A stretch of 64,000 nt of DNA from a phage (PZ386951.1); one strand, 5' to 3'; positions 29,407 to 39,939 are shown, counted from the first letter of the stretch. The notes: generated by a model from the letters alone, not told the origin. Made by a program: numbers and translations.

Positions 29407-29736
29407 TCAATTAGAAAATAAATTTATCCAAGATTGTTCTTTAATTAAAAATGGCTCAGAATCATATGCCATTAAACTTTGCGTAATTAGTCCTTTTAAA
29501 GGACCATCAATAAATTCCATGGTAAAATATGGAATTTTATTCATTAGCCGTGCATTAGGAGCAGTACACAAAACTCTGCATCCTTTGAATACGCCTTTTT
29601 GTAATTTGTATTGCTTAGGATAAAATTCGCTCAAAATGTTGTTATTTGCCAAAATTTCAAAATGATTCACCAATTTATTTTTAATAGTTTTTGGCGAAAA
29701 ATAAAGATATTCGAAAAGCTGAGTGTCTGTCATCAT
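29407..29736 (-). CDS. hypothetical protein (~110 aa)
   Basis: Start at the second in-frame Met cluster (MMTDTQ). Confidence 0.45.
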
Positions 29737-30320
29737 TGCATTCCGATTACGAAAAACTGTGGACGAGTAATACCACCAATACAACATTTACTATTACAGC
29801 AGTACTGCACAGTGTCAATATGGGCACTATAAATCTTATCCATATCAGGAGATTTGACAGGCTCATCAATTATATACAAAATTCGCGAAAGCGATAAACC
29901 TCTGAACTTGCTTCCTTTATTACCGATAAAACTGCGCACAGAATCAGTAAATAAGCGGAATCGAATATCATCATTAGAATAACGCGAAAATTCCTTTTTA
30001 ATGTTATTTGCAGAAATTTTAGCGTAAGCTGAAGTATTAGAAAGAACAATAACTGTTCCGCCGTCATACAACCAATTAGCGGCAAAATTAGTTACTGCAG
30101 TTGATTTACCGGATTGACGTCCACCATCTAGTCGAAGTGTGCAATACTGCTTAAGTAAGTCTTCAAATGGTGGGATATAATCGTTTTTACAAATTTCTTC
30201 TACTCTAGCATCAGAATGGTGTGTAAAAGCATTCATCAGGGATAGATAAGGACCAGTTAAAAATGTTCTCATTTTATTCTCTCTAAATTTGGGCCATTCC
30301 GTGGCGCATGAATTGTCCAT
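29733..30320 (-). CDS. small P-loop NTPase (195 aa or shorter)
   Basis: Walker A GGRQSGKST and Walker B-like ILYIIDEP; start uncertain (no clear RBS at the first ATG). Confidence 0.55.
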   Translation of the reverse strand: MDNSCATEWPKFRENKMRTFLTGPYLSLMNAFTHHSDARVEEICKNDYIPPFEDLLKQYCTLRLDGGRQSGKSTAVTNFAANWLYDGGTVIVLSNTSAYAKISANNIKKEFSRYSNDDIRFRLFTDSVRSFIGNKGSKFRGLSLSRILYIIDEPVKSPDMDKIYSAHIDTVQYCCNSKCCIGGITRPQFFVIGMQ

Positions 30321-30425
30321 TTCTGTATTTACCCATTACCGCACTTGGGCTCGACCTTATTACAGGTTGGCGGGAATCCCTCATAGAATCATGAGGTCCA
30401 GGTTGTTCCCATATTTCTTATTTGC

Positions 30426-30899
30426 TTATTTGAACGATTTAACGTACTGAATAGAACCTTTACTATTCACGAAAGCGATTTTACCATTTTTATTATACAT
30501 GGTAGCAGTACGCTGATAACCATAAGTTTGCTTACCAGATTGATAACCAACTAATGCAAAATTATCTTCACCCATTTTATTCTGTTTAGCACGAATGCGT
30601 TCATGACCATGTGCCATAAGAACCTTAGCATCACCAGTTGCAATGGATCGACGAGTTTTTTCATCTTCAACTGTATTAACAAAATCGTCAAATGAATCAA
30701 ATTTAGCGTGAGATTTATTATACAGTTTTCCATCTACTGCATAATTATATCCCTGTACATCCATCTCAACTTCTGTACCATCATCCAGTACAGCAGTGAT
30801 TTTTTGACCTTTTTTAAATTTCAAAAGATCAGTAAAAGATTCAGCAATAATTTGAGATTTAATAGCTGCTTCAGTGATAAATTCTTGATATGTTTTCAT
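30426..30899 (-). CDS. internal-protein-like gene with capsid-targeting signal (157 aa), not one of ipI/ipII/ipIII
   Basis: N-terminus MKTYQEFITEA is the CTS/gp21-protease cleavage leader shared with ipII and ipIII; same conserved 5' UTR. Confidence 0.6.
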   Translation of the reverse strand: MKTYQEFITEAAIKSQIIAESFTDLLKFKKGQKITAVLDDGTEVEMDVQGYNYAVDGKLYNKSHAKFDSFDDFVNTVEDEKTRRSIATGDAKVLMAHGHERIRAKQNKMGEDNFALVGYQSGKQTYGYQRTATMYNKNGKIAFVNSKGSIQYVKSFK

Positions 30900-30924
30900 A
30901 TGTTTCCTTTAAATGTAAATATTT
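30876..30924 (-). repeat. ~48 bp direct repeat (CTS codons plus 5' UTR), copy 1 of 3
   Basis: gataaattcttgatatgttttcatatgtttcctttaaatgtaaata also at 31662..31707 and 32282..32330. Confidence 0.8.
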
Positions 30925-31325
30925 TTGCCGTAATACTTATACCAGTGCGGCTTCATTAAAATTTTTTCATCGAGTCGTTGTTGACTCAACCTAATAGCTG
31001 ATTTGCATGGATTATAATCATTTTTCCATTCTACTGGAATATCACTGATGTCAGGAACTTCAGTATCTTTTATACTAAACCTGCGTTTTAAGCATTCCGT
31101 TATAATGTCTGATTGACGCTTTCGCAAAAATTCTAACTTATCGTAAAAGAACGTAACATGACCAGAACCTAAAATAAACTCGGAAGATATTTTAAAATCT
31201 TTAACCCGTTTACCATTTGCCACGTGTTTACGAATTATACCAAAAACACGTGGCAATTCACGGTATTCCGCGATTAAATGTTGATCAGCAAGTTCAGATA
31301 CTAAAGTCAAATTAATACGAGTCAT
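30909..31325 (-). CDS. denV: endonuclease V (pyrimidine-dimer DNA glycosylase)
   Basis: 138 aa beginning [17 protein letters not shown], matching recalled T4 endoV. Confidence 0.9.
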
Positions 31326-31350
31326 TTTACCCCTCCAAGTAATTATGAAT

Positions 31351-31380
31351 ATACTATCACAATTCTAGGAGAAAGTAAAC
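31351..31380 (-). promoter_or_regulatory. early promoter in a stem-loop cassette upstream of denV
   Basis: ~40 bp near-identical to 32355..32394; 8-bp inverted repeat around the -10 (TGaTAGTAT), GTTTAC -35. Confidence 0.5.
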
Positions 31381-31382
31381 TG

Positions 31383-31685
31383 TTATTTACCTTTAATTAC
31401 TTTAGCTGCTTCGATAGCCGCTTGCTGAAGGTCATCCATAGACATACCGAATTTAGAAGCAAAGTTATCAATTTTCTTTTCGACAGCATTCAAAGGCTTG
31501 GCCTGTTTACCTTCATTAGCGCCAGGAAGAGCGAGAATACGCTCTTTGTCAATATAAAGGCTTACAAGTTTCTTACGGTCTTTATCGGACAAATCATGAA
31601 ATGAATGGGCCTTTTTATTTATAGCGGCTTCTAATTTACCTGCACTCACTCGCGCTTCAGTAATAAATTCTTGATATGTTTTCAT
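31383..31685 (-). CDS. ipII: internal protein II
   Basis: 100 aa, N-terminal CTS MKTYQEFITEA; position denV-ipII-ipIII-e as in T4. Confidence 0.8.
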   Translation of the reverse strand: MKTYQEFITEARVSAGKLEAAINKKAHSFHDLSDKDRKKLVSLYIDKERILALPGANEGKQAKPLNAVEKKIDNFASKFGMSMDDLQQAAIEAAKVIKGK

Positions 31686-31707
31686 ATGTTTCCTTTAAAT
31701 GTAAATA
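31662..31707 (-). repeat. direct repeat (CTS plus 5' UTR), copy 2 of 3
   Basis: See 30876..30924. Confidence 0.8.
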
Positions 31708-31726
31708 GGTCTGAGTATTAGCTTTA

Positions 31727-32305
31727 TTAGGAATTACGGGCTGCATTAGCAACGGCATACGCGTACTGAACATTAGCGTCTTTAAACGTACCTTTAGAGG
31801 TATCTATTTCTGCCTTAAAGCCGCCTTTAGTCATAACATCGGCAAATTCTTTACGGAAAGCCATTGCATCAAGACCTTTCCATGATGATTTATGCTTGGC
31901 GAATTCAAGACCAGCGTAGTTGACAGCCTTAGCTAATTTATTATCAATAACCCATTTACCAGCTTTAGGCACAAACTTCGGGCCTTTCTGTTTAGAGAAC
32001 AGTTTTAAATTCCAGCGGCGAAGGTCACTGTCGGCTTTAACAAAAGCTGCGTCTAAGTTACTAGCAACAACATCTTCAATATGAGCAAATTTAAGTCCGT
32101 CAACTTCAATATTTAGATCGGTACGCCAGCGAAGTCCTTCCCAAGCGAAGGCTTTAAAGTCGGAAGCCTTTGTAGCTAAGTACCGTTCAATAGGAGCTGT
32201 TTTAGGGTCAAAGCCGTTTCCTGATCGGTAGGTCCACTCATCTTTGTTAATGCCTTTGGCCTTTACTACAGAAACTTCGGCAATAAATTCTTGATATGTT
32301 TTCAT
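31727..32305 (-). CDS. ipIII: internal protein III
   Basis: 192 aa, CTS MKTYQEFIAEV; basic Lys/Ala-rich; position before e. Confidence 0.8.
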   Translation of the reverse strand: MKTYQEFIAEVSVVKAKGINKDEWTYRSGNGFDPKTAPIERYLATKASDFKAFAWEGLRWRTDLNIEVDGLKFAHIEDVVASNLDAAFVKADSDLRRWNLKLFSKQKGPKFVPKAGKWVIDNKLAKAVNYAGLEFAKHKSSWKGLDAMAFRKEFADVMTKGGFKAEIDTSKGTFKDANVQYAYAVANAARNS

Positions 32306-32330
32306 ATGTTTCCTTTAAATGTAAATATTT
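32282..32330 (-). repeat. direct repeat (CTS plus 5' UTR), copy 3 of 3
   Basis: See 30876..30924. Confidence 0.8.
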
Positions 32331-32364
32331 TAATTAGTAATTGTCTATTCAAGTAATTGTGAAT

Positions 32365-32394
32365 ATACTATCACAATTCCAAGAGAAAGTAAAC
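32365..32394 (-). promoter_or_regulatory. early promoter in a stem-loop cassette upstream of ipIII
   Basis: Near-identical copy of the 31341..31380 cassette. Confidence 0.5.
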
Positions 32395-32398
32395 AACT

Positions 32399-33367
<969 letters not shown>

Positions 33368-36405: not shown

Positions 36406-36969
36406 TTATTTACCCAGTTTAGTTATTATAGCTTCGGCAGCAGCTTTTAGCTTAGATGCAGTGTTAATACGATTTTTAATTTCAGTATACGCATCGCCAA
36501 GAACATCAAGGCTATCTGAATAAACACTTACACTATTGCGTTCACTATTTGAAATAGAACCTTTAGTTTTACGATCAAAATCGGTGTACACGTCTTGAAG
36601 ATCGCGGGCTGCCTTCTTTGCATCATCCAATGCATCAAGAGCTTTATTTAAAGCATTAACATATTTTTTAGTGTCAAACATATTCTTAGAAATTTTGACG
36701 GGTGCGCGTTCAGGAGTAGCTAAGGCAGATTTAGGAACCTGAGCGCCTGATGCCAGTTTCTTAGAAATTTTGAAAAATGCTTTATTGAATTTATTTTCTT
36801 GACTCATCGTAAAAGAACTATTATCGATGTTATACATTTCAATAGCTTTAGCTTTCCACTTAAGAAAATCGCCCCGGTCTTTTGGGTCCAAGTGGAAGAA
36901 TACTTTAGTAAGATCTGCTTCAGATGGTAATTTTGCTGCTTCGGTTAAAAATTCGGCATAGGTTTTCAT
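36406..36969 (-). CDS. internal-protein-like gene with capsid-targeting signal (187 aa)
   Basis: N-terminus MKTYAEFLTEAAK (CTS-like, predicted gp21 cleavage after LTE); RBS AAGGA. Confidence 0.55.
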   Translation of the reverse strand: MKTYAEFLTEAAKLPSEADLTKVFFHLDPKDRGDFLKWKAKAIEMYNIDNSSFTMSQENKFNKAFFKISKKLASGAQVPKSALATPERAPVKISKNMFDTKKYVNALNKALDALDDAKKAARDLQDVYTDFDRKTKGSISNSERNSVSVYSDSLDVLGDAYTEIKNRINTASKLKAAAEAIITKLGK

Positions 36970-37562: not shown

Positions 37563-37649
37563 TGGTGGGGAGTGATGGAGTCGAACCACCCGAGTCGCAA
37601 TGACAATGGATTTACAGTCCACACCGCTACCTCTACGGGATAACTCCCC
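37563..37649 (-). tRNA. tRNA-Tyr: tRNA-Tyr (anticodon GUA), type II long variable arm, CCA encoded
   Basis: Acceptor GGGGAGT/ACTCCCC; anticodon arm GTGGA-CUGUAAA-TCCAT; variable arm resembles E. coli tRNA-Tyr. Confidence 0.8.
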
Positions 37650-39705: not shown

Positions 39706-39939
39706 TCATTTTTTACGAAAAATTGATTTATTTTCTGCTGCCCATTTTTCAATAACTGCAGCCGGACCAGTAACAACAATTTTATCACCGTAATCTTCTG
39801 CGGCGAGTTGACCGAAATTATCTAATGCATCACGAAGAACTCCATGAGGCATTTCACCCATTTTATCTTTCTTGCCAGTGTAAATAAACTCAACTTTTAC
39901 ATCAGAAGATTCAGCGATAAATTCTTTAAACGTTTTCAT
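39706..39939 (-). CDS. internal protein at the ipI locus (77 aa precursor with CTS)
   Basis: N-terminus MKTFKEFIAES (CTS); position between 57B and the tRNA region as for T4 ipI; body does not obviously match recalled IPI. Confidence 0.6.
   Translation of the reverse strand: MKTFKEFIAESSDVKVEFIYTGKKDKMGEMPHGVLRDALDNFGQLAAEDYGDKIVVTGPAAVIEKWAAENKSIFRKK

Follow-up and report, generated by a model that had tools for sequence, protein, structure and literature searches.

What is the 157-amino acid (aa) open reading frame (ORF) that lies between denV and the vs.8 homologue of a T4-like phage, why does it begin with a leader resembling those of ipII and ipIII, and what might its product do? The stretch of DNA analyzed here (64,000 nt; hereafter, the window) is a segment of a Tequatrovirus (T4-like) genome, in which the genes of the locus follow one another on the minus strand in the order nudE, e, ipIII, ipII, denV, the 157-aa ORF, and the vs.8 homologue. 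The lysozyme gene e (32399..32893) and the vs.8 homologue (29733..30272 within a 195-aa ORF, 29733–30320; PHROG 1488) are the conserved upstream and downstream anchors of an array of cassettes, which comprises ipIII (31727..32305; Ip3, 192 aa, PHROG 5341, 95% identical to T4 ipIII), ipII (31383..31685; Ip2, 100 aa, PHROG 7857, 94% identical to T4 ipII), denV (30909..31325; endonuclease V, 76% aa identity to T4 denV), and the 157-aa ORF (30426..30899), all on the minus strand. The original prediction of three consecutive minus-strand genes with a common leader is accurate as to strand and leader, but not as to their being consecutive, since denV, a non-leader gene within the array, separates the 157-aa ORF from ipII.

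The locus of reference T4 (NC_000866) reads e-ipIII-ipII-denV-vs.8, with only 26 nt separating denV and vs.8, which agrees with the earlier statement that T4 has only ipII and ipIII here. When the window is aligned with T4, the ORF corresponds to a clean indel of ~500 bp, flanked by sequences of ~80% identity toward denV and ~98% identity toward vs.8, and the gene is absent from this position in T4.

Both flanks of the indel have features of their own. The denV allele of the window shares 76% of aa (~80% of nt) with that of T4 and 94% to 97% with those of Kha5h, L006, and L008, and the vs.8 flank is 97% to 98% identical to T4, so that a sharp mosaic boundary lies at the ip4 site; the T2 locus lacks denV altogether. 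T4 vs.8 is annotated as a 219-aa gene, with its start inside a relatively GC-rich, 98%-conserved stretch (30272–30425 in the window), where the corresponding frame of the window contains an in-frame stop and an 8-nt indel. Because the T4 frame is broken in the window and the 195-aa ORF matches the PHROG 1488 profile only from residue 19 onward, the conserved start of vs.8 is probably the MRTFL at 30272. A structured RNA in the GC-richer ip4-vs.8 spacer was considered and rejected, given a fold z-score of 0.04 and no Rfam match in the region at gathering thresholds.

Identity of the 157-aa ORF

Profile and structure searches converge on one assignment. The ORF is matched over its full length by PHROG 3155, “internal virion protein” (profile search, E = 1.7e-101), and by Pfam DUF7412 over residues 1–157 (318.4 bits against a cut-off of 27), whereas the top match to its structure model in BFVD is UniProt Q38388, “Ip4 [Enterobacteria phage K3]” (98% identity). 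The mature part is 100% identical to that of T2 “ipIV,” and the homologous gene is annotated as ipIV or ip4 in T2, Kha5h, ime09, Yersinia phage PST, Salmonella phage S16, and Klebsiella phage 311F. Judged by these sequence matches, the 157-aa ORF that follows denV is ip4, one of the T-even internal proteins already known. The novelty implied by the original prediction accordingly falls away: the gene is annotated in the T2 reference, is present in most Tequatroviruses, and bears a name that dates from the 1990s, and neither the gene nor its leader, likely role, or modular cassette exchange is new to the literature and genome annotations. The family designation DUF7412 was not named in the literature searched, and a search combining “Ip4,” “T4-like,” and “internal” likewise gave no result.

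Structural comparisons add little to this identification. A sequence search of solved structures with Ip4 returned no meaningful match, the best being a designed repeat protein (E = 6e-4 over 40 residues); no fold similar to that of Ip4, beyond Ip4 itself, was found in the viral structure search (BFVD), and the Pfam, solved-structure, and viral-structure searches revealed neither a catalytic motif nor an enzyme fold. The modeled fold of Ip4 is uninformative as to function.

Leader and predicted processing and packaging

The ORF begins with MKTYQEFITE, as does ipII, and ipIII begins with MKTYQEFIAE. Codons 1–10 of ip4 (30870..30899, minus strand) encode this capsid-targeting sequence (CTS), which is identical to the T4 CTS MKTYQEFIAE at 9 of 10 positions and ends in the prohead-protease motif I-T-E; codons 11–20 (30840..30869, minus strand) encode AAIKSQIIAE, a possible second propeptide segment ending in I-A-E. 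Both ends conform to the hydrophobic-x-Glu motif of the protease (residues 8–10 and 18–20), and in all 14 Ip4 family members compared E10 and E20 are invariant and preceded by a hydrophobic residue at −3. The gene also lies in one of the two hotspots of internal protein genes (the e/denV region, the other being the ipI region), within the e-to-vs.8 interval beside ipII and ipIII. [quoted passage not shown] Residues 10–20 are disordered in the Ip4 model, with a pLDDT of <50 for the segment 11–20. Mature Ip4 would thus comprise 147 or, more likely, 137 residues, the latter product having a predicted mass of 15.5 kDa and a pI of 9.3 and being basic like Ip2 and Ip3.

The family to which the ORF is matched also includes a protein apparently reported from virions. 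VMC263_127 of Klebsiella phage ValerieMcCarty03 is a 70%-identical homologue of Ip4, encoded directly adjoining the lysozyme gene, and an “internal virion protein” designated gp127/119 gave 66/66 peptide-spectrum matches in CsCl-purified Klebsiella phage virions (PMC13119998); matching the gp number to the locus tag suggests that VMC263_127 is gp127 of that study. Together with the family matches, this report bears out the view that the ORF encodes an internal protein additional to those of T4. Internal proteins of T4 are injected into the host along with the DNA (PMC9026906, PMC12373910). We propose that ip4 would be translated from a Shine–Dalgarno/leader module shared with its neighbors, that the capsid-targeting first 10 residues would bring Ip4 into the prohead scaffolding core, and that the gp21 prohead protease would cleave after Glu10 to release the leader and probably make a second cut after Glu20, leaving a basic product of ~15.5 to 16.5 kDa in the DNA-filled head, to be injected with the genome. 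For the phage of the window, the processing sites, the injection, and an anti-restriction role are what we infer from these parallels.

Distribution and selection on ip4

A tblastn search with mature Ip4 retrieved 471 phage records, 311 of them at ≥95% identity and 159, in Klebsiella, Salmonella, and Serratia phages, at 60% to 80% identity. As 512 records contain a Tequatrovirus-type e gene, the 311 close matches place ip4 in ~60% of Tequatrovirus-type genomes, and T4 belongs to the ip4-less minority (~40%). IMG/VR yielded only 5 ip4 loci. Compared with its T2 counterpart, the gene has a synonymous divergence of ~0.17 and a single amino acid change, located in the propeptide (dN/dS 0.015), whereas dN/dS is ~0.13 against both S16 and a Klebsiella phage; these values indicate that ip4 is a real gene under strong purifying selection. 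More than 290 genomes encode a mature Ip4 that is 100% identical, despite the dS of ~0.17, and the family alignment (14 cluster representatives) contains 64 invariant columns.

Among 1.84 billion representative proteins, a profile search recovered only four clusters at E <1e-10, all of them leader-bearing phage proteins, and thus no bacterial or enzymatic relatives of Ip4. The distant relatives carry their own, analogous leader variant, MNF..FLNE(S), and one of them sits on a 2.8-kb contig without annotation. The small number of clusters and the analogous leader of the distant ones suggest that the Ip4 family is old, narrow, and always leader-bearing.

Other leader-bearing ORFs in the window

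Two further minus-strand ORFs begin with leaders of this kind and, added to ip4, ipII, and ipIII, bring the leader-bearing ORFs of the phage to five. The first, of 77 aa (39706–39939), lies at the ipI locus, starts with MKTFKEFIAE, and matches PHROG 8111, “internal virion protein”; past the leader its product is near-neutral (pI 6.5), as opposed to the basic Ip2, Ip3, and Ip4. The second, of 187 aa (36406–36969), starts with MKTYAEFLTE, which resembles a capsid-targeting leader and contains the cleavage motif L-T-E; flanked by the e.x genes and the tRNA cluster, it falls in neither of the recognized Ip loci. It belongs to PHROG 2280, “unknown function,” and to no Pfam family, and its mature part is found in 165 phage records, being a “hypothetical protein” in every sampled one, including RefSeq ECML-134. 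The 187-aa product is the least-annotated item found in the window and a candidate unannotated internal protein, which may mark a third Ip site. The neighboring cluster comprises nine tRNA genes (Rfam RF00005; 37407–38691, minus strand), one of which (37568–37647) scores barely above threshold (30.2 versus 29 bits); the tRNAs, at 37.4–38.7 kb, were the only matches to Rfam across the window at gathering thresholds.

Leader repeats and proposed cassette exchange

The repeat search detected a direct-repeat family with three copies of 57 nt that are 93% to 95% identical, so that the three near-identical blocks of the original prediction were confirmed, although their length, given there as ~48 bp, is 57 nt. 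All three copies are on the minus strand. Copy 1 (ip4; 30869..30925) runs from the last codons and stop of denV, which its upstream end overlaps, through the Shine–Dalgarno sequence AAGGA and the ATG to the CTS codons; copies 2 (ipII; 31655..31711) and 3 (ipIII; 32275..32331) belong to the other two genes. Each block contains 26 nt of 5′ untranslated region (UTR; ATTTACATTTAAAGGAAACAT, including AAGGA) and the ten leader codons. The window contains a 34-mer spanning the ribosome-binding site and codons 1–7 in exactly three places; the expectation from 100 shuffles is 0.

Such repeats could be kept only for the targeting peptide and the ribosome-binding site and have no part in rearrangement. 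Functional constraint alone does explain much of the coding identity, because the 30-nt CTS block is conserved across 71 distinct leader contexts in many genera, with upstream sequences that vary between lineages. Yet constraint of this kind fits poorly with the 26-nt untranslated part, which is identical in all three copies of the window, whereas other phages use different UTRs in front of the same leader. The junctions point the same way. In T2, ip4 directly follows e, and the e-ip4 spacer matches the e-ipIII spacer of T4 and of the window up to the leader and ip4 past the leader, so that the partner switches exactly within the leader. The T2 junction has the form expected had leader copy 3 crossed over with copy 1 and, as read from the sequences, supports recombination there, in line with the original suggestion that the repeats offer a recombination substrate. 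In addition, a 6-nt UTR variant (presence or absence of TACATT) tracks genomic position rather than the gene body, and recombination at short homologies is known from T4 (PMC9391042). We therefore regard it as very unlikely that constraint is the whole explanation of the repeats.

Arrangements of the locus are correspondingly diverse, with nearly as many e-to-vs.8 orders as loci among the 28 T4-like loci compared. Examples include e-ipIII-ipII-denV (T4), e-ip4 (T2), e-denV-ip4, e-CTS93-denV-ip4, e-CTS105-ip4, e-CTS131-ipII-denV-ipIII-CTS104, and, in RefSeq ECML-134, e-ipIII-ip4; a Megablast count of e-ip4 junctions is confounded by pieces joined across ipIII. We suggest that the 57-nt repeat would supply all cassettes with one module for expression and targeting and would double as a homology patch, at which co-infecting T-even phages could delete, join, and exchange cassettes, and that this exchange would have generated the many different natural e-to-vs.8 arrays.

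Leader–leader recombination is not the sole route, and other mechanisms contribute, because the boundary between presence and absence of ip4, defined by comparison with T4 and L008, coincides with the upstream edge of the leader at one end and has no long homology at its 3′ end. Two denV allelic backgrounds share this boundary. On the minus strand, ip4 is flanked by a short, imperfect direct repeat, with GAAACATATGAAAACA at the start of the gene (30892–30907) and GAAATATGGGAACA after its stop (30410–30423), and the ip4-less loci of T4 and L008 read like hybrids at this point. The pair could be the mark of a microhomology deletion in T4 and L008, but is too short and AT-rich to tell from chance.

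A second direct repeat, of 45 nt and 93% identity, occurs at 31336–31380, directly following the ipII stop and upstream of denV, and at 32350–32394, directly following the e stop and upstream of ipIII. It reads GTTTAC-N18-TAGTAT, resembling a T4 early promoter, and includes an inverted repeat of 8 to 9 bp (GAATTGTGA/TCACAATT). The 45-nt repeat was not detected by a generic sigma-70 scan, and promoter and terminator consensus sequences showed no enrichment over shuffles in 30100–33000, a scan whose consensus does not capture T4-type promoters.

Possible function of Ip4

Precedents for the function of leader proteins come from type IV restriction. Each of T4 Ip1, Ip2, and Ip3 blocks one GmrSD type IV restriction enzyme of its own, with no cross-protection, and the authors proposed the same role for all proteins of both Ip loci (PMC12373910); IPIII without its CTS acts from the cytoplasm (PMC9391042), and Bas37_0260, a leader protein at the ipI locus, inhibits McrBC (bioRxiv 10.1101/2025.11.20.689424). 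Because 4/4 characterized leader proteins inhibit type IV enzymes, Ip4 is most likely another inhibitor of this class; by this analogy, injected Ip4 would bind and block one specific, modification-dependent host enzyme, and we give the assignment about an even chance of being correct. Beyond the leader, Ip4 has no sequence or fold similarity to Ip1*, Ip2, or Ip3. To call the ORF a candidate anti-defense effector was thus reasonable, and such a role is by now expected in print of the Ip proteins as a whole (PMC12373910; bioRxiv 2025.11.20.689424), but one published screen gave no reproducible target: “ip4-10” did not reproducibly inhibit active GmrSD variants (PMC12373910), a result that extends to the Ip4 family only insofar as the name is the same. 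The constancy of the Ip4 sequence, unusually static for an arms-race protein, also counts against an anti-restriction role.

Constancy of this degree (dN/dS 0.015) would suit a protein that is mainly structural or DNA-associated, a basic filler that neutralizes DNA charge or aids core assembly or DNA ejection and has no specific host target. Mature Ip4 is basic (pI 9.3), lysines of internal proteins touch DNA phosphates and IPIII mutants have head-assembly defects (PMC3012670, PMC9026906), and the failure of ip4-10 to find a GmrSD target (PMC12373910) could be read in the same way. However, Ip2 and Ip3 are just as basic and long had no assigned function, but turned out to inhibit restriction specifically; moreover, ip4 can be dispensed with in nature, as it is missing from T4 and ~40% of Tequatroviruses, and resides in a presence/absence cassette array typical for accessory counter-defense genes. 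A mainly structural or DNA-associated role consequently appears unlikely to us.

The negative GmrSD screen of ip4-10 would equally suit an injected effector with a target other than type IV enzymes, either another first-response defense or, as for the ADP-ribosyltransferase Alt, host takeover. Ip4 is kept across genera infecting Klebsiella, Salmonella, and Serratia, which suggests a conserved target, and T4 also packages proteins, such as Alt, that do not inhibit restriction (PMC9026906). Since all four of the characterized small leader proteins act on type IV restriction enzymes and the searches described above revealed no sign of an enzyme in Ip4, neither motif nor fold, this alternative, too, is improbable.

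More specifically, Ip4 may be an injected inhibitor of a defense system as yet unpaired with any phage protein, a proposal that we consider evenly poised between being right and wrong. Its target might be a type IV enzyme, of the GmrSD group or otherwise, that lies beyond the variants screened so far, or it might belong to another kind of first-response system. Were this proposal correct, the near-absolute constancy of Ip4 would reflect a conserved, widespread target, and the phage of the window would possess at least five differently targeted injected inhibitors, namely, Ip2, Ip3, Ip4, the 77-aa ipI-locus protein, and the 187-aa leader protein. Among Tequatrovirus internal proteins yet to be paired with a target, Ip4 is the most widespread, and T2 offers a clean background for finding its target, because Ip4 is the sole internal protein at the T2 locus and T2 lacks Ip2 and Ip3. 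More generally, injected counter-defense proteins could be mined from the e-to-vs.8 interval, whose cassettes form a compact array delimited by leaders. Overall, we are fairly confident that the observations are best explained by the combination of an ip4 gene, leader-targeted packaging of its product, and repeat-mediated exchange of the cassette, with inhibition of a type IV enzyme as a last step that has the even chance given above.

Comparison with known systems

Ip4/IpIV of the T-even phages (Q38388 of K3, and its T2 counterpart) is the same protein, with the same leader and at the same e-vs.8 locus, as that encoded in the window, and only the neighbors differ. In the window, ip4 follows denV in a full e-ipIII-ipII-denV-ip4 array, whereas elsewhere it is found after e (T2), after ipIII (ECML-134 and PST), or before ipII (Jiaodavirus). 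T4 Ip1 (IPI*), Ip2, and Ip3 resemble Ip4 in the N-terminal leader, protease motif, small size, genomic hotspot, and non-essential, presence/absence distribution, but show no sequence similarity to it past the leader and, unlike Ip4, have identified GmrSD targets. Bas37_0260 is, like Ip4, a non-T4 cassette with the same leader; it has been shown to be anti-restriction, resides in the other Ip locus, and was described by its authors as unrelated in sequence (bioRxiv 10.1101/2025.11.20.689424).

At least 10 Ips have been reported in T-even phages (PMC3012670, PMC12373910). That these are diverse defense proteins sharing just the leader was put forward in a 2010 review citing Repoila et al. 1994 (PMC3012670) and restated in 2025 (PMC12373910). 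As far as the work of Repoila et al. is represented in those two articles, the polymorphic T-even internal-protein cassettes encode diverse proteins that have the leader alone in common and are swapped among phages.
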